Below are positions 4,876-51,915 of a stretch of DNA of 64,000 nt, piece after piece. Position 1 is the stretch's first letter. The number at the start of each line of letters is the position of its first letter. Made by a program: the position numbers and the translations under genes. The notes under the pieces are model-generated. The model saw only the letters and a program-made list of their open reading frames with translations, did no database searches and was not told the DNA's origin. This stretch comes from an uncultured Clostridium sp. (GTDB lineage Bacteria > Bacillota > Clostridia > TANB77 > CAG-508): assembly GCA_947572725.1 (NCBI GenBank), contig CANPDB010000003.1, positions 2,296 to 66,295 on the forward strand, given 5' to 3'.

Positions 4876-5997
4876 TTATCCTAAAAGTATTTTACAGATT
4901 TCATCAGTTGAAAAAGGTTTTGCAAGAATATTTGTATTTTTTTTCATATTTTTTAATTTTTCTTTATTAGATAATAAAAGGTCAAATACAATTTTACTTT
5001 CATTACTATTTCTTATCCAAACGGCAATTCCCTTACTTTCTAGAAATTCTGCATTTTCTTTTTCTTGACCAGGAATAGGGTTAATAATAACCATAGGCAA
5101 ATGAGATGCAAGACTTTCTGAAGTTGTTAGTCCACCTGGTTTTGTAACAACTAAATTAGAAATACTCATTAATTCTGGAACTTTGTTTGTATATGATAGT
5201 ATTTTTACAGCTTCAGATTTATTATATTTTTTTACTACATTTTCGAAATTTTCTTTCATTTCTGGATTTTTACCAGCAATGGCAATTACTTGCATATTTC
5301 CATCAAATTGTACTAAATTTTCAAAAATTTTTATTGTTTTTGTTTTTCCAAGACCATATTCTCCGCCACCAAAAAATAAGATTGTCTGTTTTTCGGGAGA
5401 TAAATTAAATTCTTTTAATATGTTTTCTTTATTATGTTTTTCTGTAAAACGACTAGAAATTGGTATTCCAGTTGCATATACTTTTTCTTTAGGAATATTT
5501 TTGCTAATTAAATATTCTTTCATAGCTTCATGTGCAACAAAATAATAGTCTGTGAAATCATTCCCAACTAACCATTGATCATGTGGAGCAAAATCAGTCA
5601 TAATTGTCGCAATTTTCGCAGATATTTTTCCCTTTCGTTTTAGATAACTACACATTTGGCTTCCAAAAGGATGAGTAGAAATAATTAAATCTGGATTTTT
5701 TTCTCTTAATAATTTAAGAAGTTTTATTGCCATAATTTTGTTTGACCTAGAAGAAAGATGTGCTAAAGGTCCTTTTTGTGAATCAGCATATATTCTTCCC
5801 CAAGCCCAAGGTGCTTTTTTTGCCATTTCATTGTAAGCCGAAGTTGTTACTTTTTCAATTGTTTTATTAATATATTTCATACAATCTATTAATTCAATAT
5901 CTGAATTATGATAATTGTTTATTATACAATCATTTATTGATTTAGCAGCATTTAAATGTCCTCCTCCATAAGAGGCATAAAAAATTAGTATTTTCAT
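4876..5997 (-). CDS. glycosyltransferase family 28, MGDG synthase / UgtP-like diacylglycerol glycosyltransferase
   Basis: Start taken at MKILIFYASYGGGH, the typical N-terminus. C-terminal GT-B signature (KPGGLTTSESLASHLPMVIINPIPGQEKENAEFL). Confidence 0.8.
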   Translation of the reverse strand: MKILIFYASYGGGHLNAAKSINDCIINNYHNSDIELIDCMKYINKTIEKVTTSAYNEMAKKAPWAWGRIYADSQKGPLAHLSSRSNKIMAIKLLKLLREKNPDLIISTHPFGSQMCSYLKRKGKISAKIATIMTDFAPHDQWLVGNDFTDYYFVAHEAMKEYLISKNIPKEKVYATGIPISSRFTEKHNKENILKEFNLSPEKQTILFFGGGEYGLGKTKTIKIFENLVQFDGNMQVIAIAGKNPEMKENFENVVKKYNKSEAVKILSYTNKVPELMSISNLVVTKPGGLTTSESLASHLPMVIINPIPGQEKENAEFLESKGIAVWIRNSNESKIVFDLLLSNKEKLKNMKKNTNILAKPFSTDEICKILLG

Positions 5998-6030
5998 AAA
6001 TTCTCCTTTTTGCATTAATTTTATCATTAT

Positions 6031-6335
6031 TATAATTTAGATTTAAAATTATCTACTCGCTCCCAGGAGTTTATATTTTAATATTTTTTCGTTATCCCCA
6101 TTCTAAAAATACAAAACCAAGATTTTCTAAACAAGCTTGCTTGTAAGAAAATATAAATTTTGCATAATTAATTTCTACGTCAAGTGCATAAATGCACTTT
6201 CCTAGAACTTAAAAACCTAACAAAAGTTCATAGAACTTTTGAGGATTTTTGAACGGTCCCCACAATTTCACTTCAAAATATTAAAATATAGAACTCCTTC
6301 GCGCTATTTTAAATGTTTTGATTCTAAATTATAAC
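6031..6335. repeat. nested-hairpin repeat, family 1 (CTCCCA...CGGTCCCCAC), copy A with its flanking palindrome
   Basis: The 6053-6315 core aligns with copies at 38712-38857, 22780-22937 and 48896-49036 (reverse). The outer arms GGAGTTTATATTTTAATATTTT and AAAATATTAAAATATAGAACTCC pair. The flanks TATAATTTAGA and TCTAAATTATA are also inverted. Confidence 0.85.
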
Positions 6336-7097: not shown

Positions 7098-8471
7098 ATG
7101 AATAAATTAGTAGATTGGAAAAATAGGTTAAAAAAAGGGCATATGTTAAGTGTAATTTGTGCACTTTTAATTATTGTAGCTATATTAGGTGTTATTTTAT
7201 ATAAAAAGCAAAGAGAATATAGACAAGCATCTGAAAATAGTTATAATATGGCATTTTATGAATTAGTAGATTATGTACAAAACGTGGAAACATATTTAGC
7301 GAAATCGTTAATTTCTACAACTCCTGAACATGGAGCAGAAACTTTAACAAATTTATGGAGAGAAGCTAATCTTGCACAAAGCTATTTAAGTATGTTACCA
7401 ATAGAAAGTCAAGAACTAGCAAATACAGAGAAGTTTCTAAATCAGGTAAGTGATTATAGTTATTCATTATCAAGAAAGAATATTTATAATGAAAGTCTGT
7501 CAGATGAAGACTTAAAAAATTTAAAAGATTTATATGGATATAGTGTAGAATTAGAAAATACTTTAAATCAACTATCAGAAGATTTAAATACAGGAAGACT
7601 AGAATGGGGAGAATTAACTAAAAAAGGAAATATAGCATTTGCACAGCAAGTAGATAATATATCAAAAGAGAGTTTTAGTAATTTGGAAGAAAATTTCCAC
7701 GAGTATTCAGGATTAATTTATGATGGAGCATTTTCAGAACATATTACAAGTAATGAGGCAAAAGGTTTAACAGGAGAAGACATAAGCGAAGAACAAGCAA
7801 AAGAAAAGGCAGAAAATTTAATAGGAAAAGAAAATATAAAAGAAATATCAAACTTAGGATATTCAGAAAACGCAACTATTCCAGTATATGATTTTTCAAT
7901 AACAAATAATAATGATGAGTCAATAAATGTATCAATTTCGAAAAAAGGTGGACACATTGTATATATGAATTCAAACAGAGATGTAAATGCAGAAATGATA
8001 TCACAAGAAAAAGCAAATGAGAAAGGTAAAGAGTATTTAACACAAAAGGGATTTCCTAATATGAAAGAGACATATTATTTAAAACAAGAGGGAATAGTAA
8101 CAATTAATTATGCTTATACACAAAATAATGTAATTGTATATTCTGATTTAATAAAAGTAAAGGTTGCATTAGACAATGGGGAAGTCTTAGGGATAGAAAC
8201 AACAGGTTATCTAAATAATCACCAAGAAAGAGATACTAAAAATGTGAAAATTACTAAAGAACAGGCAAAACGAAATTTAAATAAAGAATTAACTATAGAA
8301 AGTGAAGGAATGGCAATTATTCCAACAGAATGGAAAACAGAAATACTTTGTTACGAATTTAAAGGAAGAGTAGAAGAAAAAGAATTTTTAGTTTATATTA
8401 ATGCGGAAAATGGAAGAGAAGAAGATATTTTAGTTATTACAAATACTCCAAATGGTACACTTACTATGTAA
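7098..8471 (+). CDS. ypeB: germination protein YpeB
   Basis: Start moved to MNKLVDW (RBS AAAGGAAAG); the track start at 7029 reads through the repeat. N-terminal TM helix and C-terminal PepSY-like repeats. Conserved sleB-ypeB pairing. Confidence 0.8.
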   Translation: MNKLVDWKNRLKKGHMLSVICALLIIVAILGVILYKKQREYRQASENSYNMAFYELVDYVQNVETYLAKSLISTTPEHGAETLTNLWREANLAQSYLSMLPIESQELANTEKFLNQVSDYSYSLSRKNIYNESLSDEDLKNLKDLYGYSVELENTLNQLSEDLNTGRLEWGELTKKGNIAFAQQVDNISKESFSNLEENFHEYSGLIYDGAFSEHITSNEAKGLTGEDISEEQAKEKAENLIGKENIKEISNLGYSENATIPVYDFSITNNNDESINVSISKKGGHIVYMNSNRDVNAEMISQEKANEKGKEYLTQKGFPNMKETYYLKQEGIVTINYAYTQNNVIVYSDLIKVKVALDNGEVLGIETTGYLNNHQERDTKNVKITKEQAKRNLNKELTIESEGMAIIPTEWKTEILCYEFKGRVEEKEFLVYINAENGREEDILVITNTPNGTLTM

Positions 8472-8755
8472 GTTGCCAAGAGGGACGGGTTTTTTTGGCA
8501 ACTTTTGTTTATCAATTAGAATAAAATAAAAAATTCTAAAATCTGAAAAAAGTGCATTGAAAGTAATTAAATTAGAAATTATTAATTTGGTTTATGGAAA
8601 TAGTTTATTTTTAATGAAAGGGTGCCATAAACCAAATTTAAAATTTCTATGAAAATTAGCTTGAACAAGCATTTTTGATAATTTTAGAATTATTTATTTT
8701 TATTATATATAAATAACGGATAAAGTTGCCCAAAAGACCCGTCCCTTTTGGCAAC
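8472..8755. repeat. family 2 paired-hairpin element, about 285-bp imperfect palindrome
   Basis: GTTGCCAAGAGGGACGGGTTTTTTTGGCAAC (8472-8502) and GTTGCCCAAAAGACCCGTCCCTTTTGGCAAC (8725-8755) are inverted copies. The interior has further inverted pairs (AATTCTAAAAT / ATTTTAGAATT; TTTGGTTTATGG / CCATAAACCAAA). Confidence 0.85.
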
Positions 8756-20616: not shown

Positions 20617-20649
20617 AAGCTAATATACTATAATTTTAATTAGCTACAT

Positions 20650-20692
20650 GTTCCCAGAAGTTTATATTTTAATATTTTTTTCGAGCTATTTA
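20650..20692. repeat. internally deleted family 1 repeat
   Basis: TTCCCAGAAGTTTATATTTTAATATTTTTTTCGAGCTATTTA joins the family 1 left end directly to the right-end TTCGCGCTATTTA-like motif. Confidence 0.6.
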
Positions 20693-22714: not shown

Positions 22715-22738
22715 ATTATTTAGTATCAATTTTATTTA

Positions 22739-22976
22739 GCAATCAATTAATTTTCTTTTAGTTAATTATATTTTTTAAACTACTCACTCCCAGAGGTTTA
22801 TAATTATATATTTTTTCACTGCCCCAACCTAAAAATTCTAAAGAAAAGTTTTTTAAACTTTTCTAAGAATTTTTGGATGGTCACCCCGGAGTCGTTCAAA
22901 AGGTATATAATTATAAACCTCTTCGCGCTATTTAAATTTTAACTTATAATTAACTAAAAGAAAATTAATCGATTGC
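22739..22976. repeat. nested-hairpin repeat family 1, copy C, inside a 38-bp flanking inverted repeat
   Basis: Core 22780-22937. The outer stem AGAGGTTTATAATTATATA / TATATAATTATAAACCTCT is perfect. The flanks GCAATCAATTAATTTTCTTTTAGTTAATTATA and its reverse complement bound the whole unit. Confidence 0.85.
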
Positions 22977-23052
22977 TATATTAATATTGAAAAATATGCC
23001 AATTTGTGGTAATATTAACAAAGTAAAAACAAAAAGGTAAAGGAGAATTTTT

Positions 23053-24111: not shown

Positions 24112-24120
24112 ATAATAAAT

Positions 24121-24333
24121 GTGACAAAAGGGGCGTCCCTTTTTGTCACATAAAAATTATATATTTAAAATGTTATTATATTTTTTATTTGCAACTCCCA
24201 ACTGCACACAGTCTGTAAATTCTTAACAGACTGTAGCTTGTCGGTCCCCACGAAATGTTGCTTCATAAAGAAATATAATAACATTTTATAAAAAACAAAT
24301 TTGTGTGACAAAAAAGGGCGCCCCTTTTGTCAC
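24121..24333. repeat. composite palindrome: family 2 hairpin pair enclosing a minimal CTCCCA...GGTCCCCAC unit
   Basis: GTGACAAAAGGGGCGTCCCTTTTTGTCAC (24121-24149) and GTGACAAAAAAGGGCGCCCCTTTTGTCAC (24305-24333) are inverted. Inner core is GCAACTCCCAACTGC-hairpin-AGCTTGTCGGTCCCCACGAAATGTTGC (24191-24261). Confidence 0.85.
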
Positions 24334-24347
24334 AGGAGGTAAAAAAC

Positions 24348-26174: not shown

Positions 26175-26930
26175 GTGATGATAATGAAGAAAAAGGAAAC
26201 ATATTTAAATAGACTATTGAATGATATAGTTTTTATAATAATGGGAATTGTAATTTCAATTATTATAGCTAGTGGCTTTTTTTATTTATTTTTTGCAAAG
26301 GATATAGGATTGAAGAATGCTAAAGAAAAAGGAACAAAAGTAATAGCTACAATAGCTGATATAGAAGAACGTGGAAACCCACTTCATAATCCATATGAAG
26401 AAAATCGTTCTATAAGAAATATGACATTAACTTATAGTTATAGAGGAAAGGAATATACAAATGTAACTTCTAGTTCATATAAAAAAGCTAGTATTGGAGA
26501 TGTAATTACAATTTACATTATAGATAATAATCCCAATAATATTGTTGTAGAGCTTCCAAATTCATCATGGATTCCATATTTTGCATTTGCTTTGTTAGGT
26601 TTAATCTTAATTGGTTGTATTTATTCGTTGATTGTAACGATAAAACAATGCTTACTATATAAAAAATCACAGAAATTTACAACTATTACAGGAAACTTTT
26701 CACATATAGAATCACGAAATCATATGGGATATACTAAATATTATATAATTTGTGAATCAGATGAAATAGGAGGATTCAATAGAAGTTTTAAAAGCCATTA
26801 TTATTCTGAAAATCCTTCTGACTTTATAGAAAAGCGTAACAGAAAGACATTTAAAATAAAGTATAATCCAGCAAAGCCAAAAGAGTACATCGTAGATACA
26901 GATGGTTTTGACAACCAATTTTTAAAATAG
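26175..26930 (+). CDS. DUF3592-like membrane protein
   Basis: N-terminal TM helix, beta-rich middle region, second TM helix (IPYFAFALLGLILIGCIYSLIV). Same architecture as the 29137 ORF. Confidence 0.55.
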   Translation: MMIMKKKETYLNRLLNDIVFIIMGIVISIIIASGFFYLFFAKDIGLKNAKEKGTKVIATIADIEERGNPLHNPYEENRSIRNMTLTYSYRGKEYTNVTSSSYKKASIGDVITIYIIDNNPNNIVVELPNSSWIPYFAFALLGLILIGCIYSLIVTIKQCLLYKKSQKFTTITGNFSHIESRNHMGYTKYYIICESDEIGGFNRSFKSHYYSENPSDFIEKRNRKTFKIKYNPAKPKEYIVDTDGFDNQFLK

Positions 26931-27025
26931 AAATCATAGATAAAAAGTTCTAAAAAATGATTAAAAAATTGGAAATTTTTAGAAAATTGTTTGACAAATG
27001 CAAAAGAATACGTTACTATTTAATT

Positions 27026-27105
27026 ACAAAATAAATGAACTTTGAATGTCGCTAGTATTCAAATCATAACAGTGTGTGTACCACGAATACACATGCTATT
27101 TTTTG
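27026..27105 (+). ncRNA. candidate sRNA, copy 1 (paralog of 29701-29787)
   Basis: Promoter TTGACA-17-TACTAT at 26991-27019. Hairpin 1 at 27041-27063. Terminator hairpin AGTGTGTGTA-CCACGAA-TACACATGCT plus T-run. The promoter through +15 is near-identical to copy 2. Confidence 0.45.
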
Positions 27106-29598: not shown

Positions 29599-29665
29599 TT
29601 ATCCATCCTTATATTCTAATTGCAAATTTGGTACAGAAAATATTGGAAAATTCTAGAAATTTGAT

Positions 29666-29694
29666 TTGACAAATGCAAAAGAATATGTTATTAT
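29666..29694 (+). promoter_or_regulatory. consensus-like sigma-A promoter of the candidate sRNA
   Basis: TTGACA, 17-nt spacer, TATTAT. Duplicated at 26991-27019. Confidence 0.6.
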
Positions 29695-29700
29695 TTAATT

Positions 29701-38435: not shown

Positions 38436-38681
38436 ATGGACGAAAAAACAATGGTAAATGACATTTTAGGAAGTGTAAAAGCAGATTTAACAGCATATCA
38501 AACAGCAATATCAGAAGCTGAAAATATGCAATTAAGACAAACATTTCAACAAATTAGAAATAATGACGAAAGTTTCCAATATGAGTTATTTAAAATAGCT
38601 CAATCAAAAGGATATTATGTACCAGCACAAAAAGCTACTGTAACAGAGATAGATGCAGTAAAAACACAGTTACAACAATAA
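38436..38681 (+). CDS. spore coat protein F-like
   Basis: Coat_F-like pattern (MVNDILGSVKADLTAYQTAISEAENMQLRQTFQQIRNNDESFQYELF). RBS GAGGAGG. Confidence 0.6.
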   Translation: MDEKTMVNDILGSVKADLTAYQTAISEAENMQLRQTFQQIRNNDESFQYELFKIAQSKGYYVPAQKATVTEIDAVKTQLQQ

Positions 38682-38711
38682 TAGATACAATGAATATAAA
38701 AAATATTTATT

Positions 38712-38857
38712 TACTCCTAGAAGTTCATATTTTGTATTTTTACGTTATCCCCATTCTAAAAATCCTAACAAAAGTTCTATGAACTTTTGAGGATTTTTGA
38801 ACGGTCCCCACAATTTCACTTCAAAATAAAAATATGAACTTCTTCGCGCTATTTAAA
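38712..38857. repeat. nested-hairpin repeat family 1, copy B (compact form)
   Basis: Same order of blocks as copy A but without A's 105-bp insert. Outer stem is GAAGTTCATATTTT / AAAATATGAACTTC. Confidence 0.85.
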
Positions 38858-39219
38858 TATTCTATACTAAATTGTAAACAATAATATTTTATAAATAATT
38901 ACTTGAGTTAGAGGTTTGTAAATTAAATGCAAACTTCTTAATTATTACCTATAATGTTACAATCCATAGTTTATATAAATTTGTGTATAAAATCAATAAC
39001 AATGAATTGTAAAAAATATAAATTGCTAGAATAACACAGAAGATAAAAATGGGAGATAAAGCGAAAAAAAGAGAGATAATCAATAAAAAAGAAACAAAAC
39101 ATACAAAAATTGGCCTTTTTAATCTTTGCAAAAAAACAAATATTACAATAATATTACAATAACATTACAAATATTTCAAACATACAAGAGAATTAATAAT
39201 AGTACAAAGGAGCCTAAAA

Positions 39220-40317: not shown

Positions 40318-40560
40318 ATATATTATGACAATAAATGTATAAATGTAATATAAAACTAAAGTAAACGTAATATATGAAATGATATTGGCGAAATCCTTAT
40401 ATCCTTAGGAAAGCAAAAGATATGAATTTTATATCTAATAATATGCATATTGACATTGAACTAAAAAGAAGATTAAATAGAATTAGGAAATTAAAATATA
40501 CCGAGATAAATTATGTTTAAAATAGTTCAAAATAAGAGGAATTTTTTAGGAGGAAAGATT

Positions 40561-43500
40561 ATGGAGGAAAAACGAAAGAAAAAAATTGTTGGAGTAGCAG
40601 TTATAAGTGGTGTAATATTAGTTAGTGTTACAGTGGGAACTATTAGATTAGCTGCAAAGAGAGATGAAACAGAGATAAAAACATATGCTACAACAAACAT
40701 AGCAAACTACAATTCAACTCCAACTCAAACTATTGATGGAATAAGATACAATTTAGATGCAAGTAATAAAACTGCAACTGCAATGTATCCAGATAATATT
40801 AGTGCAATAGCTCAAATGCCAAGCGATGCTTCATTAAATGGAGTAATAGGATATAGTAATAGTTCTGGAGTGTGGATAGATATACCACAAGTTGTTACAT
40901 ATAATAATACTGAATATACAGTAACTGCTATCGGAGAAGGAGTACAAAGTTTTATATCAACACCATTAGCATCTCTTATAAGCTCAGTTTCAAATAAAAA
41001 TTTATCAATAATACTACCAAGAACTGTAAGAAATGTAAGTGCAAGTGCATTTGTTTTAAGTAGTGGAACATCTGCGATGGATAGTATAAAAATTATTAAC
41101 TTATCTAATGAAACAACATATGGAAGTTATCAATTATCTTCAAAAATAAAATTTTATGCTGTTCCTGGAAGCGGAATAGAAAAATTAACTACGCAAGCAA
41201 CTAGCTTATATAGTTATACTAAATCAGGAAGTAATGGTAATATTACAATAACTGGATTTAATAATGGAGTATTTGATAACATACCAACACTTGCAAAAGT
41301 AAATATACAACTTCCAGATTTTATATATGAGAATGGAAGTTCTACTCAAAAAGGAATTAAATTCACAGTAAACAAAATATCTAGTTATGCATTCAATGAT
41401 AATGATAGATTAAAAAACATAATAATTCCCGCTAATATAAAAAGTATTGAAACAGAAGCATTTGGAAATTGTGATAATGTAGAAATAGTTAAATTTTTAG
41501 GAAAAGATAAGAATATAAGTGACAATGCATTTTTAAGAACAAATCCATCTAATGTATATTACATTGGAAATGGAACAGTAGGAGATTATGTCTCTAGGTA
41601 TATGTCAACAGTAAGCAAAACTCCTATGAGCTTAAATTCTTTCGAAGTAATGCAATCACCAACTAGGACAAGTTATCAAAGAGGAGAAAGTTATGATGGT
41701 AGAGGTGGAATATACAAGTTAGTATATACTGGAACAGATGGAAATATTAATACTTGTTATTTAGCAGGAGAATCCAGTGATATTACATATTCTCCAAGTA
41801 CGTTTAATACGACAGGAACACAATATGTTTCAGCAACATATGAAGGAAAGACTATTGGCAATTTAGTAGCAATTGTAAGTGATACATCGCAATCTCATGT
41901 GACGATACAAACAAATCAAAATATTACTATAGAAGTAGGAAAAACTCAAGAAATTACTCCATCAGTAATTGGTGCATCAGACACTAGATTGGATTGGAGT
42001 AGCGGAAATCCTAACATTTTAAGTGTAAGTGGAGGAGATAATTCAGCATCTATAACAGGACTGAATACTGGGACAACTACTTTAACTATACGATTACGTA
42101 GCGATAGCAATACATATATTATATGTAAGGTAACAGTAGTGGATATAGAAGGAAAAACTATAAAGATGAACCAAAAGAATGTAATACTTGATGCTGGTGA
42201 ACAAAGGCGATTAAGCTGTACCACAGAACCAAGTGATGCTACAGTTACATGGGAAATATATGATAAAGATAAAAAAACAACAATAGATTCTGCAGGATTA
42301 TTAACAGCGGGTAATGAATACGAAGATGGAGTAGTTAATGCGATAATAAATAAAGATGATTTCGATAAATATGCTACTGATACTTGTAAATATTTTGTGG
42401 GTAGCAGATTGCGAATGTTTAAAAATATATCAAAAACGGAAGATATGTTTAATCAAGAAAGGATAGTTAATAGAACAGGAACACTAACAACAGATGTACC
42501 AACAAGGGAAGGATATAAATTTAAAGGTTGGGCATTAGGAAAAGATAAAAACAAAAAAGTTGTAGGACCAGGGGAAAGATATAATTTTTCAAAAGATGAT
42601 ATAAATATTATAGGAGGATCATTTGCAGCTATAGATTTATATGCTATATGGCAAAATGTAGAATTAGACAATAATACATATACTATGGAAATTGGAAAAA
42701 CAGCTCAAGTAAATGCAAAAGTATTAGTGAATGAAATACAAAATACAAATGAAAGAGTAACTTATGAAATTGCTAATACAGATATAGCTACAATAAATAG
42801 CAATGGCTTAATAACTGGTAAAAAAGCTGGAACAACAACTGTAAAGGTAAAAGATACCTTAGGTAATGAAGTAATAGCAAAAGTACGAGTAGATGAGCCA
42901 ACAGTAACAAGAATAGCAATAACAGCACCAACAAAAAAAGAATACCTTAAAGGAGAATCATTAAATCTTGAAGGTGGAAAAATAAAAGTATTTTATAGCA
43001 ATGATACAGAAAAAGAAATACCATTAACAGAAATAAGTGATAAGATATCAGGGTACAATGCAAATATTACAGGAACACAAACAATAACAGTAACATATGA
43101 TGGACAATCCAATACGTTTAATGTAGAAGTTAAAGAACCAATAATTCATGTAAATAATGTTACATTAAATAAAACATCTTTAAATATAGAAGTAGGACAA
43201 ACAGATAAACTAGAAGCAACAATAAATCCAGAGAATGCATCAAATAAGAATGTAGAATATAGTAGTAGTAATCCAGAAATAGTAACAGTAGAACAAGATG
43301 GTACAATAAGAGGAATAAAAGCAGGAACAGCAACAATAACAGTAACAACAGAAGATGGAAATCACACAGCTACATGTAATGTTGCCGTAGAAGTGCCAAT
43401 AATCAGCGTAGAAGGCATTGAAATAACAAATAAGCCTACAACTAATATGAATATAGGCAATGAGTATGAACTAAACTATGAGATAAGACCAGAAAATGCA

Positions 43501-44832
43501 ACAGATAAAAATGTAACTTGGTCATCAACAGATGAAAATGTAGTATATGTAGATAGTAACACAAATAAATTAATTGCTAATGGAGAAGGAACAGCAACAA
43601 TTACAATAACTACTAGAGATGGAAATTATACAGATTCATTTGAGGTTACAGTAAATCCAGAAATAATTCATGTAGACAGTATTACATTAGATAAATCTTC
43701 ATTAGAAATAAAAGTTGAAGAAACATACAAATTAGAAGCTACTATAAACCCAGAGAATGCATCAAACAAGAATATAACATATAGTAGTAGTAACACAGAA
43801 GTAGCAACTGTAGATGAAAATGGAACAGTAACAGGAATATCAAAAGGAACAGCAACAATAACAGTAACAACACAAGATGGAGCTAAAACAGCTACATGTA
43901 ATGTGACTGTTAAAGAAAAGGCAAGACCTGTAATAACCAATGTTGAAGCTAAAATAGAAGATGATATAAACTATATTGTATATATATCTATAACAGATGA
44001 ATCTGGAGTAAAATCTGTAAAAGTTGCAGATGATGATATAACATTAAATAAAACAGATGATGGAAGATATTATTTTAAACCAAATGAAAATGGAACTTAT
44101 ACAATAAAAGTTATAAATAATGATGGAAATTCTATAACATATAATTACGAAGAAAAAGGCTTAAAGGAACAAGCAACAGCAGATGCAATAACAGATTCAC
44201 AATCAAATAACGTAGTTGGAGTATCTCCAAAAACAAATCATAAAGTTAGTAAAATAACAGTTGAAGGAAAAGAAATTAATTTAAGACCAAAAGATGGAAA
44301 ATACTTATTTACAACGGAAAAAAATGGTACATATAATATTGTTATAACTTACGAAGATGGTGAAACTGAAAGATTAGTATATGAAGAAACCAGATTTAAA
44401 ACTAATGGGGATAATGATGACGACAACAAGGATGACGACAACAAGGGAGACAACGACAACAAGGATGACGACAACAAGGGAGACAACGGAAACAAGGATG
44501 ACGACAACAAAGGAGACAACGGAAATAAGGATGATAACAACAAGGGAGACAATGGAAATAAGGGTGATAACAACAAAGGAGACAATGATAATAAAGGTAA
44601 CAATAGTGTAAACAATGGAAATAGTAGCAACAATAATAGTAGTAATGGAAGCAACAATAGTGGAAATAAAATTAGCAATAATAGTAGTAATAGTGCAAAG
44701 ACAGGAACAAAAACAGATACAAGTACAGCATTAAAAACATTACCTAAAACAGGTACTATAATAAGTCAAGTATTAGCAACAATTACAGGTGTGGCTACAG
44801 CGATAATAGCATGGTTTAAAATGAAAAAATAA
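40561..44832 (+). CDS. LPXTG-anchored surface protein with BspA-type LRR, Listeria-Bacteroides repeat and multiple Big_2 domains
   Basis: Start at MEEKRKKK after AGGAGG. LRR_5-like units (KISSYAFNDNDRLKNIIIPANIKSIETEAFGNC). Flg_new-like TREGYKFKGWALG...LYAIW. Repeated Big_2 units (VTLNKTSLNIEVGQTDKLEATINPENASNKN). C-terminal LPKTG, TM helix and KMKK. Confidence 0.85.
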   Translation: MEEKRKKKIVGVAVISGVILVSVTVGTIRLAAKRDETEIKTYATTNIANYNSTPTQTIDGIRYNLDASNKTATAMYPDNISAIAQMPSDASLNGVIGYSNSSGVWIDIPQVVTYNNTEYTVTAIGEGVQSFISTPLASLISSVSNKNLSIILPRTVRNVSASAFVLSSGTSAMDSIKIINLSNETTYGSYQLSSKIKFYAVPGSGIEKLTTQATSLYSYTKSGSNGNITITGFNNGVFDNIPTLAKVNIQLPDFIYENGSSTQKGIKFTVNKISSYAFNDNDRLKNIIIPANIKSIETEAFGNCDNVEIVKFLGKDKNISDNAFLRTNPSNVYYIGNGTVGDYVSRYMSTVSKTPMSLNSFEVMQSPTRTSYQRGESYDGRGGIYKLVYTGTDGNINTCYLAGESSDITYSPSTFNTTGTQYVSATYEGKTIGNLVAIVSDTSQSHVTIQTNQNITIEVGKTQEITPSVIGASDTRLDWSSGNPNILSVSGGDNSASITGLNTGTTTLTIRLRSDSNTYIICKVTVVDIEGKTIKMNQKNVILDAGEQRRLSCTTEPSDATVTWEIYDKDKKTTIDSAGLLTAGNEYEDGVVNAIINKDDFDKYATDTCKYFVGSRLRMFKNISKTEDMFNQERIVNRTGTLTTDVPTREGYKFKGWALGKDKNKKVVGPGERYNFSKDDINIIGGSFAAIDLYAIWQNVELDNNTYTMEIGKTAQVNAKVLVNEIQNTNERVTYEIANTDIATINSNGLITGKKAGTTTVKVKDTLGNEVIAKVRVDEPTVTRIAITAPTKKEYLKGESLNLEGGKIKVFYSNDTEKEIPLTEISDKISGYNANITGTQTITVTYDGQSNTFNVEVKEPIIHVNNVTLNKTSLNIEVGQTDKLEATINPENASNKNVEYSSSNPEIVTVEQDGTIRGIKAGTATITVTTEDGNHTATCNVAVEVPIISVEGIEITNKPTTNMNIGNEYELNYEIRPENATDKNVTWSSTDENVVYVDSNTNKLIANGEGTATITITTRDGNYTDSFEVTVNPEIIHVDSITLDKSSLEIKVEETYKLEATINPENASNKNITYSSSNTEVATVDENGTVTGISKGTATITVTTQDGAKTATCNVTVKEKARPVITNVEAKIEDDINYIVYISITDESGVKSVKVADDDITLNKTDDGRYYFKPNENGTYTIKVINNDGNSITYNYEEKGLKEQATADAITDSQSNNVVGVSPKTNHKVSKITVEGKEINLRPKDGKYLFTTEKNGTYNIVITYEDGETERLVYEETRFKTNGDNDDDNKDDDNKGDNDNKDDDNKGDNGNKDDDNKGDNGNKDDNNKGDNGNKGDNNKGDNDNKGNNSVNNGNSSNNNSSNGSNNSGNKISNNSSNSAKTGTKTDTSTALKTLPKTGTIISQVLATITGVATAIIAWFKMKK
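44431..44595 (+). repeat. tandem 33-nt (11-aa) coding repeat, 5 copies
   Basis: GATGACGACAACAAGGGAGACAACGRAAACAAG units encoding DDDNKGDNxNK in the stalk preceding the LPKTG signal. Confidence 0.85.
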
Positions 44833-48868: not shown

Positions 48869-48895
48869 AAATTGTAATTCAATCTATTAAAATAT

Positions 48896-49036
48896 TAGCG
48901 CGAATGATGTTATATATTTTATTTTTTGAGTGGTTCCAGGGTGACCGTTTTAGAATATGTTTGAACGAATGTGAAATACATATTCTTAAATGGGGCAACG
49001 AAAAAAAATACAAATATATAACATTATGGGAGCGGA
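48896..49036. repeat. nested-hairpin repeat family 1, copy D (reverse orientation), inside the mreC-mreD spacer
   Basis: The reverse complement reads CCGCTCCCA-outer stem-TTTTTCGTTGCCCCATTT-inner hairpin-AAACGGTCACCC...-outer stem-TTCGCGCTA, matching copies A-C block for block. Confidence 0.8.
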
Positions 49037-49111
49037 AATTTATAGATTAACTTTAATATGACAAATAGAAGGCGGAAATTTATAGATTAGTTATAAGATA
49101 ACAAATAAAAG
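49032..49111 (+). repeat. tandem duplication, 2 x 40 bp
   Basis: GCGGAAATTTATAGATTAACTTTAATATGACAAATAGAAG and GCGGAAATTTATAGATTAGTTATAAGATAACAAATAAAAG, directly upstream of the mreD RBS. Confidence 0.8.
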
Positions 49112-49681: not shown

Positions 49682-51799
49682 TTGGCAAAAAATACGAAGA
49701 ATATAAGTAAAAGTAATATTAATTTAAGATTTAATATTTTAACAGTATTAACATATATAGTAGGAATTATACTAATTGCCAGACTATTTAATCTTCAAAT
49801 AGTGCATGGTGCTGAGTATAGGGAAGGATCTAATACAAGACTTACAAGAGAAAGTGTTTTAGAGGCATCAAGAGGTTCAATAATAGACAAAACAGGAACA
49901 ACCTTAGTAAATTCAAAAATGGAATTTTCTTTAGAAATGTATAAAAGTAAAGTTGATACTGAAGTTTTAAACCAATCAATTTTGAATATGGTAAATATAT
50001 TAGAAAAATATGAACTTGATTATGTGGATTCTCTACCAATAAAAGTGGAACCTTTTGAATATAAAATTTCTGAAAAAGAATTAGAAAATTGGAAAAAGGC
50101 AAATAACTTAGAAAATGACTTATCAGCAGAGCAGGCTTTTTACAAGTTAAAAGATAAATACAAAATTAAGAATGATGATATACAAGAAACAAGAAAGATT
50201 ATGACCTTAAGATATGAATTATCTCAAAAGGGATATAGTAGCACTAAAGCTGTTAAAATAGCTGGAAATATATCAAGAGAAGCTGTTGCAGAATTTAGTG
50301 AAAGTTCAGAAAAATTTGCAGGTATTAACATTGTAGTGCAACCTATAAGACAATATACTTCTGGAAACTTAGCATCACACATTTTAGGATATGCGGGAAA
50401 AATAAGTAGTGAAGAGTATGAAAAAAGGAAAAGTACTTACGGCAGTAATGACCTGATAGGAAAAACTGGAATTGAATATGTATTTGAAGAATATCTAAAA
50501 GGAAAAAACGGAACAAAACAAATCGACATGGCCGTTGATGGAACAACAACAGCGGAATATGTTTCACAAGAAGCAATAGCAGGCTCAGATATTGTATTAA
50601 CAATAGATGCTAATTTACAACACATAGCAGAAAATGCACTTGCATCTAACATTCAAAAAATATCTAGTGGAGGATTTGGACGAGCATATGATGCTAAAGC
50701 TGGTGCTTGCGTAGTTATGAATGTTAACTCAGGAGAAGTATTAGCAATGGCAAGTTATCCAGATTACAATCCAGAAGATTTTGTTGGTGGAATAAGTAAT
50801 GAAGCATGGAATAAATATACAAATAATTCAGCTAAACCACTAGTAGATAAAGCAATACAAAATTCATATTCACCAGGTTCAACATTTAAGATGATAACAG
50901 CTATAGCAGGACTAGAATCAGGAGCAATAAATTTAAATACAAAAATCAATGATACAGGTGTATATAAAAAATATGGAATTTCAATGAATTGTTGGTATTA
51001 TACAGATTACCATAGAGGACACGGATACTTAGATGTATCAGGTGCAATTGAAAAGTCATGTAACTATTTCTTCTATGAAACAGGAGATAGAATGGGAATT
51101 GACAAATTAGCAGAATTTGCTAGATATTTTGGACTTGGTGGAAAAACAGGAGTAGAGCTACAAGGAGAAACAGGAGGAGTATTAGCAAGTAGAGAAACAA
51201 AAAGTCAAATGCATCCAGATGATCCAAACTGGAATCCAGGAAACACTCTAAATGCTACAATAGGACAAGGAGATAATGAATTCAGCCCAATACAAATGGC
51301 CAGATACATAAGTATGCTCGCAAATGGAGGACACAAAATCGATGTTAGTATAGTAAAAACAATAAGGAATGCAGATGGGTCAGAGGTATCTCGAGAAGAT
51401 ATTAATAAATTTGTAAATAAAAAATTAGGGCTAGAGGAAGATACCACAGAAGAACTACAAATAAATCAAAATCATTTAAAGGCTGTATTACAAGGTATGA
51501 AATCTGTTACAAGTGATACAGAAGGAACAGCATACGTTAGATTCAAGGATTTTGATATAAGTGTAGGTGGTAAAACAGGTTCAGCAGAAGCACCAAATAA
51601 TCAAGTACATGCATGGTTTGTTGGATTTGCGCCATTTGAAAATCCTGAAATAGCAATAGTTGTTATGGTAGAAAATGGAGGTCATGGAAACTATACAGCA
51701 GAAGTAGTTAGGGATATTATGGCTGAGTACTTTGGAATGAATACTCAAAATATAGAAGAAAATATGAATGCAACACCATTTATAGAAATAATGCAATAG
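49682..51799 (+). CDS. mrdA: penicillin-binding protein 2 (class B transpeptidase)
   Basis: TTG start. N-terminal TM helix. Motifs STFK (GSTFKMIT), SCN, KTGS. Confidence 0.9.
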   Translation: MAKNTKNISKSNINLRFNILTVLTYIVGIILIARLFNLQIVHGAEYREGSNTRLTRESVLEASRGSIIDKTGTTLVNSKMEFSLEMYKSKVDTEVLNQSILNMVNILEKYELDYVDSLPIKVEPFEYKISEKELENWKKANNLENDLSAEQAFYKLKDKYKIKNDDIQETRKIMTLRYELSQKGYSSTKAVKIAGNISREAVAEFSESSEKFAGINIVVQPIRQYTSGNLASHILGYAGKISSEEYEKRKSTYGSNDLIGKTGIEYVFEEYLKGKNGTKQIDMAVDGTTTAEYVSQEAIAGSDIVLTIDANLQHIAENALASNIQKISSGGFGRAYDAKAGACVVMNVNSGEVLAMASYPDYNPEDFVGGISNEAWNKYTNNSAKPLVDKAIQNSYSPGSTFKMITAIAGLESGAINLNTKINDTGVYKKYGISMNCWYYTDYHRGHGYLDVSGAIEKSCNYFFYETGDRMGIDKLAEFARYFGLGGKTGVELQGETGGVLASRETKSQMHPDDPNWNPGNTLNATIGQGDNEFSPIQMARYISMLANGGHKIDVSIVKTIRNADGSEVSREDINKFVNKKLGLEEDTTEELQINQNHLKAVLQGMKSVTSDTEGTAYVRFKDFDISVGGKTGSAEAPNNQVHAWFVGFAPFENPEIAIVVMVENGGHGNYTAEVVRDIMAEYFGMNTQNIEENMNATPFIEIMQ

Positions 51800-51915
51800 G
51801 TTGCCAACGGTTCCGGGTTTTTTTGGCAACTTGTAATACATATATTTATTATTTATAGCTGAATATAAGTTTAATGTTGTAATAGTTGCCAAAAAAACCC
51901 GGAACCGTTGGCAAC
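51800..51915. repeat. family 2 paired-hairpin element with perfect 31-bp inverted ends
   Basis: GTTGCCAACGGTTCCGGGTTTTTTTGGCAAC (51800-51830) and its exact reverse complement (51885-51915). The 54-bp spacer begins and ends with TTGTAATA. Confidence 0.9.

Follow-up and report, generated by a model that had tools for sequence, protein, structure and literature searches.

The stretch of DNA analysed here (64 kb; referred to as the window) has a G+C content of 27% and carries housekeeping genes, including those for SRP RNA, prfA, mreCD and ddl. The spacer between sbcC and prfA (22715-23052) was found to form a single long hairpin built up in layers, which contains the repeat copy designated C. 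The core of copy C (22780-22933, minus strand, 154 nt) was matched with 129.6 bits by a covariance model built on the G-rich strand, which is the minus strand at this copy. Read along the C-rich plus strand, the core is made up of CTACTCACTCCCAG, an outer stem, a loop, an inner hairpin, a loop, the returning outer stem and TTCGCGCTATTT. The two terminal strings CTACTCACTCCCAG (22780-22793) and TTCGCGCTATTT (22922-22933) do not pair with each other. The arms of the outer stem, 25 nt each (22792-22816 and 22898-22922), are 92% complementary, and between them lie the left half of internal loop 2 (CACTGCCCCAAC, plus strand, 22817-22828, with a YCCCCA motif), the inner hairpin (approximately 22829-22876) and the right half of loop 2 (ATGGTCACCCCGGAGTCGTTC, plus strand, 22877-22897, with a GGTCMCC motif). 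The folding energy of the 154-nt core was -48 kcal/mol (z = -8.6) and the whole 272-nt region gave a z of -12.1; no shuffled sequence folded as well in either case.

Short spacers separate the core strings from a 40-nt inverted repeat, the outer palindrome, with arms at 22731-22770 and 22945-22984 which are 93% complementary; the right arm ends just 5' of the -35 box of prfA (TTGAAA, 22987). The first-pass annotation had reported a flanking inverted repeat at 22739-22778 and 22938-22976, and the repeat does exist, a few bases away from those positions. Its description as locus-specific was borne out, as among the DNA compared the palindrome was found only at the orthologous locus, where it is kept in L023, L026 and L037 and partly in L032 (L numbers designate the compared loci). 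In a relative with 98% PrfA identity (L034:9313-9955, also L035 and L036), a toxin-antitoxin gene pair (nucleotidyltransferase/HepT-like) replaces the hairpin element in this spacer.

Four full copies of the same repeat (family 1) are present in the window, A, C, D and E, together with a remnant, B. The whole unit of copy A (6030-6334, plus strand; core 6053-6308) has the terminal inverted repeat TTATAATTTAG...CTAAATTATAA. Copy D (38683-38876, plus strand; core 38707-38854) is a whole inserted unit of 194 nt with the ends ..TACAAT and ATTGTA. Copy E (48893-49039, plus strand) is located between mreC and mreD and has its G-rich strand on the plus strand, i.e. opposite to the other family-1 copies of the window. 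Remnant B (20643-20690, plus strand) is a deletion derivative in which the 5' arm is retained and joined at a TTCG microhomology to TCGAGCTATTT. Two further copies, F (about 14720-15005, plus strand) and G (24166-24288, minus strand), were assigned to a second family; copy F has about 170 nt of extra hairpins nested at its apex, and copy G has internal loop 2 as in family 1 (TCCCAAC / CGGTCCCCAC) and is devoid of the CTCCCAG / TTCGCGCTA ends. The common ground between the two families is restricted to the inner loop motifs TCCCAAC and CGGTCCCCAC. A 56-nt shell at 38957-39012, with the ends TTACAATCCATAG...CAATGAATTGTAA, is a flipped and centre-deleted version of a 181-nt family-2 unit found at L039:17-197. 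In total, the window contains five family-1 copies (including remnant B) and two family-2 copies, and others were found in five more genomes; the units are small (150-300 nt, below the limit of about 400 bp applied to MITEs), non-coding and dispersed, as are MITEs. The sister copies listed in the first-pass annotation (A, D, E and F, the last near 14720) were all recovered at the positions given there, and copies G and B were found in addition.

Copy A is interrupted by 106 nt (6110-6215) unrelated to the element, which lie within the 5' arm of its inner stem, contain two small hairpins of their own, are bounded by CTAAAAAT and CTTAAAAA, and occur a single time among all the DNA compared. The neighbouring open reading frame (4876-6027, minus strand, MGDG-synthase-like) is about ten codons longer than its homologues of 373-374 aa; judged from these, its true start is probably near 5997, which would leave more room before copy A. 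Just after copy E, at 49028-49108, about 40 nt starting with GCGGAAATTTATAGATTA occur in tandem, and each unit ends in a string similar to ACAAATAGAAG, reminiscent of the end of mreC. In a relative with 97% MreC identity (L039:10038-10199, also L040 and L041), the mreC-mreD spacer contains two remnants, one of the E type, centre-deleted and in opposite orientation to copy E of the window, and another which is the end of a further copy. Remnant B and those of L039 (10095-10154) and L047 all retain the arm with CGCTCCCAG.

DNA identical to the window was found in gut metagenome assemblies only, and PrfA has many relatives at 93-99% protein identity. Identity to the window at third codon positions of prfA was 0.88 for L037, 0.85 for L023, 0.81 for L026, 0.77 for L032 and 0.71-0.75 for L029 and L015, and the DNA of the relatives is diverged from the window at about species level. 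Pattern scans were made with patterns derived from few copies and too narrow: there were nine hits in genomes, of which three were real, all three in rabbit-gut 'uncultured Clostridia' MAGs; two hits in metagenomes, on two contigs; and no hits in viral sequences. A BLAST search with copy D against plasmid and phage collections gave no match. Several metagenome contigs end inside hairpin elements or at their apex (L037:1, L023:1, L042:9982 and L025:9394).

The covariance model was derived from 11 copies, and ten full copies (from about six genomes) were realigned to it for the counting of pairs. Fitting of the alignment to the model and the relatedness of the copies make these counts lean towards structure, but the margin is still large: 92.6% of the cells were paired, in comparison with 77.3% in shuffles and 39-50% when the partners were slid; 30 of the 54 pairs had changed on both sides (13.1 in shuffles); and the covariation score was 0.411, against 0.147 for shuffled and 0.06-0.12 for slid partners. 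None of 500 shuffles equalled the observed value on any covariation measure. These figures uphold the earlier claim that pairing rather than stem sequence is conserved, and also the claim that the inner stems behave like the outer ones, with both-side changes in 13 of 24 and 16 of 23 pairs, respectively. The outer stem strings quoted in the first-pass annotation as differing between copies and pairing within each were correct; to call them perfectly paired was too strong, the stem of copy E having an A.C mismatch (G.U on the other strand).

Comparison of orthologues gave the same picture. Between copy C and its orthologue in L032, eight pairs had changed on both sides and were still paired, three were kept via wobble and six were broken on one side. 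About 23% of the stem sites differ between the two, and independent change would hit about three pairs on both sides and leave about one of these still paired. Both-side changes still paired numbered three between L023 and L026 (two broken) and six between L023 and L008 (none broken). With third-codon identities of prfA of 0.77-0.88, the divergence is roughly neutral. Covariation of this strength is no proof of a functional RNA, since a mobile DNA hairpin yields the identical signal.

Copies C, D, E and G are each missing at the orthologous site in relatives, as expected of MITEs. The clearest case is copy D, which is cleanly missing from the L025 allele. Relative to this empty allele the window is longer by 203 bases, which correspond to the 194-nt unit plus a second AACAATAAT, so that the unit is flanked by a 9-bp target duplication (38674-38682 and 38877-38885, plus strand), the one unambiguous target duplication found. 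The outer inverted repeat of copy D is part of the inserted 194 nt, and the empty site of L025 has no palindrome at the insertion point; a terminator hairpin is located about 25 nt downstream in both alleles. It follows that at copy D the outer palindrome belongs to the mobile unit. In L044, the empty site of copy E is a 23-nt mreC-mreD spacer without a palindrome, in an alignment shakier than that at D; it is compatible with a target duplication, but natural near-repeats around the mreC stop codon make this ambiguous. The closest relative has a deletion derivative at the site of copy A and no empty allele, and copy G is absent from L023, L026 and L037. In the L015 group and in L029-L031 the sbcC-prfA spacer (117-131 nt) is without the element and holds a short terminator hairpin that bears no relation to the 40-bp palindrome; the alignment is too diverged to decide the question of a target palindrome for copy C.

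Related ends recur among the units, TTAYAAT on copies A and F, on the 38957 shell and on two L039 units, and ATACAAT on copy D; the outermost ends differ on copies C, L008, L027 and L032. A search of about 670 kb of compared DNA for TTACAAT ends 0.04-4 kb apart (TTACAAT...ATTGTAA), as would mark an autonomous partner, found none, and no transposase domain was noticed when the Pfam families of the compared loci (about 670 kb) were read by eye. A TTACAAT pair at 26506/26628 falls within a coding region and was for this reason rejected as element ends.

At the sbcC-prfA locus the element occurs in both orientations. Nucleotides 1-79 of L037 match the reverse complement of the left half of the window element at 77 of 79 positions and its right half as read at 56 of 69, with the flank matching at 103 of 106, which indicates the same element in opposite orientation, with the adjacent spacers moved along. 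The outer palindrome is common to L037, L023 and L026. The centres of L023 and L026 also align better when flipped, and both hold a core of the A/D type; L032 has a C-type core in the same orientation as the window. An assembly artefact is an unlikely source of the flipped orientation, since the loci are from different assemblies, the loops break the exact identity of the arms, and the word sizes suggested by the MEGAHIT contig names (k119, k141) are much longer than the 40-bp arms. Changes shared by the two arms were also observed. Each flank arm has TTTTCTTTTAG in the window where each has TTTTCTTTTTAG in L023, a shared indel; three adjacent pairs differ on both arms between L023 and L026; and the apical loop is ATA in copy A and TAT in copy D, reverse complements of each other. 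The flank palindrome of L032 has only the outer GCAATCG part in common with that of the window, and its own two arms are nearly identical.

Template switching of the polymerase between the arms of inverted repeats is known to produce homogenised arms, inverted spacers, multi-nucleotide changes and expansion (PMC8604942, PMC8794818, PMC13100816). The flips, shared indels and clustered both-arm changes of the present elements bear the signature of such switching from arm to arm. The first-pass annotation had offered homogenisation of the arms by hairpin-templated repair as one of two possibilities, and a templated process gains direct support from the flipped centre at one locus, the flipped apical loop of A and D, the indel shared by the flank arms and the three adjacent changes on both arms. 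Homogenised arms, multi-nucleotide changes on both arms and inverted spacers, all predicted by the model (PMC8604942, PMC8794818, PMC13100816, PMC5941160), were observed in the present elements; the model also predicts arm expansion, with which the unusual length of the outer arms of copy C would agree. Most descriptions of the process concern short inverted repeats, RNA genes and eukaryotes, and no account of it was found for a bacterial mobile repeat family; it gives no explanation of the conserved asymmetric loops. A site-specific inverton was considered as well and gained no clear support: both orientations are present between lineages, but no recombinase was noticed among the Pfam families within 10 kb and no internal promoter was predicted.

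The unit is one long hairpin broken by two conserved asymmetric internal loops, with CGCTCCCAG opposite TTCGCGCTATTT in loop 1 and CGTTATCCCCA opposite CGGTCCCCACAATTTCAC in loop 2. Three YCCCA motifs (UGGGR on the other strand) are all on one strand. Among A, D, L008, L023 and L026, the cores agree at about 95% over loop 2 and the inner hairpin, in contrast to the 8-10 bp adjoining loop 1 and to the outermost arms, which show no relation from copy to copy. In addition, one outer palindrome at sbcC-prfA houses two core types in different lineages. Neither cores about 95% alike in unrelated outer arms nor two cores in one palindrome are predicted by simple transposition followed by drift, and the two cores in one palindrome suggest core replacement bounded by CTCCCAG and TTCGCGCTA, via gene conversion or re-insertion. 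Asymmetric loops would not survive template switching by itself; some selection must therefore act on them as well, and, given their conservation, selection on a single-stranded structure may be involved.

A structured RNA would account for part of these observations. If the elements were genes for such an RNA, or parts of one, with the G-rich strand as the working strand (5'-AAAUAGCGCGAAG...GUGGGGACCG...UGGGGAUAACG...CUGGGAGCGAGUAG-3'), selection on RNA pairing would give the compensatory changes and the loops would be functional. Conserved unpaired segments are indeed found beside strongly covarying stems, although covarying helices with conserved loops are equally expected of a DNA-level explanation. 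The G-rich strand folds better by 3-16 kcal/mol in 11 of 11 copies, and an A.C on the C-rich strand, equivalent to G.U on the G-rich strand, is kept in nine of ten copies (columns 56/110). On the G-rich strand there are 24 G.T cells and 12 A.C cells, but nine of the 24 come from one inherited column. The stem changes are mostly swaps of A-U to U-A with very few G.U intermediates, and the outer flank arms, though not conserved, co-vary as well. Nor was a consistent transcription context found: about half of the copies lie each way with respect to the neighbouring genes, the orientation flips between sister lineages, and prediction gave neither a promoter nor a terminator within the element. A search of the window and of copies C and D against Rfam 15, on both strands, gave no match for the element, with SRP RNA elsewhere as the only result at gathering thresholds and generic hairpin (miRNA) noise in E-value mode. 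Remnants which have lost an arm persist (B, L039, L047). The strand preference of the covariance model (130-168 versus 20-32 bits) was discarded as evidence for RNA, because any strand-asymmetric conserved sequence behaves in this way. Given the mixed orientation, the G.T excess due to one column, the few wobble intermediates, the co-varying flanks and the lack of a predicted internal promoter or terminator, a DNA-level process is favoured over RNA for the stems, and a structured RNA is considered rather unlikely.

The nested arrangement could also have arisen from the insertion of a smaller mobile core into the centre of existing palindromes (terminators or older hairpin elements), the flanks then being the split target. 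IS1397 and ISKpn1, to which the first-pass annotation had compared the elements, are full insertion sequences with a transposase which target the loop of a pre-existing REP pair in enterobacterial BIMEs. The likeness consists in a repeat found inside a palindrome, and several features would agree with it: the similarity of the cores is far above that of the outer arms, two core types are found within the same outer palindrome in different lineages, copy F has further hairpins nested at its apex, copy G lies between two terminator-like palindromes where empty sites have a single one, and a terminator hairpin is found at roughly this position in the sbcC-prfA spacer of the element-free relatives. 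This last hairpin is nevertheless short and unrelated, the 40-bp palindrome of copy C being missing from those relatives; copy G, an ambiguous case, is flanked by two whole palindromes, not by halves; and the 56-nt shell at 38957 is more readily explained by a deletion between TTAT microhomologies. The suggestion that the flanking palindrome pre-exists as an ordinary terminator failed at the empty sites of D (L025) and, on a shakier alignment, E (L044), which are without a palindrome, and at D the outer repeat arrived with the element; unlike in the case of IS1397/ISKpn1, the element itself is the palindrome. Palindrome targeting is considered very unlikely.

REP doublets (REPINs), which a RAYT-type Y1 transposase moves in single-stranded form, were a further candidate; the elements share with them hairpins confined to intergenic DNA and strand-asymmetric conserved motifs, and the G-rich strand ends in GTAG in six of 11 copies. 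GTAG is, however, not conserved in D, E, L010, L012 and L027, and the stems, A+T-rich and of 20-25 bp, differ from the short G+C-rich REPs. REPINs are hairpin doublets with strand-asymmetric conserved bases, without target duplication, with short G+C-rich stems and an accompanying RAYT gene (PMC2817692); of the latter three features none is seen in the new family, copy D having a 9-bp target duplication and no Y1 transposase having been noticed among the Pfam families of the genes in the compared loci. It is hard to conceive of the elements as REPINs. Retrons, integron attC sites, IS200/IS605 ends and single-strand origins were also considered and dropped, since a 9-bp duplication was seen, the copies are dispersed singly and the motifs that define those systems are lacking.

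Copy C is thus probably a member of a new family of small, non-coding foldback repeats of the MITE type, nearly fully self-complementary, in uncultured gut Clostridia with 27% G+C, which would be moved in trans by a transposase and whose arms would be kept complementary mainly by template switching. The family is new but of a known kind, a MITE-like repeat, and no new type of system. Units would be moved in trans by a putative transposase. After insertion, intramolecular template switching or arm-to-arm conversion during replication would mainly keep the arms complementary, copying a change or indel from one arm to the other, flipping the unpaired centre and being able to lengthen the arms. 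Purifying selection would guard the asymmetric loops, which the mobilising enzyme or a host factor perhaps recognises, and the 40-bp palindrome of copy C would be the outer layer of the element structure and no prior target.

The loops with their three YCCCA motifs might go further than this and form a strand-specific, single-stranded recognition module (in DNA or RNA) for a hairpin-acting enzyme or host factor, which might also flip the centre and exchange cores between outer shells at the CTCCCAG / TTCGCGCTA boundaries. Such a module seems quite unlikely; if true, it would mean a cassette-like mobile hairpin system in Firmicutes, not passive template switching on an ordinary MITE. The conserved asymmetric loops provide a defined target for finding a factor that recognises the elements.

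By description, the closest known systems appear to be MITE-like repeats with compensatory changes, above all bcr1 and then the ERIC and Correia elements. Long stem-loops are described for MITEs, and compensatory changes for bcr1 (PMC3184786). The bcr1/group A repeats of the Bacillus cereus group resemble the new family in being about 150 nt long, of a Firmicute, non-coding, intergenic, dispersed and variable in presence between strains, and also in their short flanking direct repeats and stable fold with compensatory base-pair changes (PMC3184786, citing Okstad 2004 and Klevan 2007). The bcr1 repeats have 5-bp direct repeats, a two-hairpin, cruciform-like fold and known transcription; in contrast, the new family, compared by description, has one long nested hairpin, two conserved asymmetric loops and a 9-bp duplication seen once. 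The ERIC/IRU and Correia/NEMIS elements are, likewise, imperfect intergenic palindromes of 100-170 nt, found in either orientation, sometimes with internal insertions, and forming long hairpins; they occur in Proteobacteria and the sequence of their arms is well conserved (PMC3184786). In the new family, by contrast, almost none of the arm sequence is shared between copies, and conservation is confined to the loops. The family offers a clean natural record of how a bacterial genome keeps long palindromes perfect, provides an uncultured A+T-rich lineage of gut Clostridia with a further repeat family, and probably fragments the assemblies of this lineage, as contigs end inside elements (L037, L023, L042).

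A second kind of repeat was observed in the window, made up of terminator-like palindromes of about 31 nt with a G+C-rich centre, GTTGCCAAAAGnCCCGnCCCTTTTGGCAAC or GTGACAAAAGGGGCGCCCCTTTTGTCAC (8470-8500, 8723-8753, 19486-19516, 24117-24147, 24306-24336, 51797-51832 and 51883-51913). One of these mini-palindromes, in L029:11070-11110, is cleanly missing from the otherwise identical L030, and AAATTTG is repeated at the junctions; they thus appear to be mobile too. Two of them flank copy G (24117-24336 region). The centre of the left one, GGGGCGTCCC, is the reverse complement of GGGACGCCCC, the centre of the lone copy at the L037 empty site, and the one to the right has kept the ancestral orientation. 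The pair would be due either to direct duplication followed by a loop flip or to inverted duplication.

Other repeats were noted in the window as well. In-frame tandem repeats of 15, 18 and 33 nt (GACGACAACAAGGATGAC..) were found at 44387-44623 inside an open reading frame of 1439 aa (40513-44832), and internal repeats of 260 nt at 43112-43915. A 75-nt direct repeat, 81% identical between 26963-27037 and 29638-29712 and containing TTGACAAATGCAAAAGAATAYGTTAYTATTTAATTACAAAATAAATG, looks like a duplicated promoter or leader.
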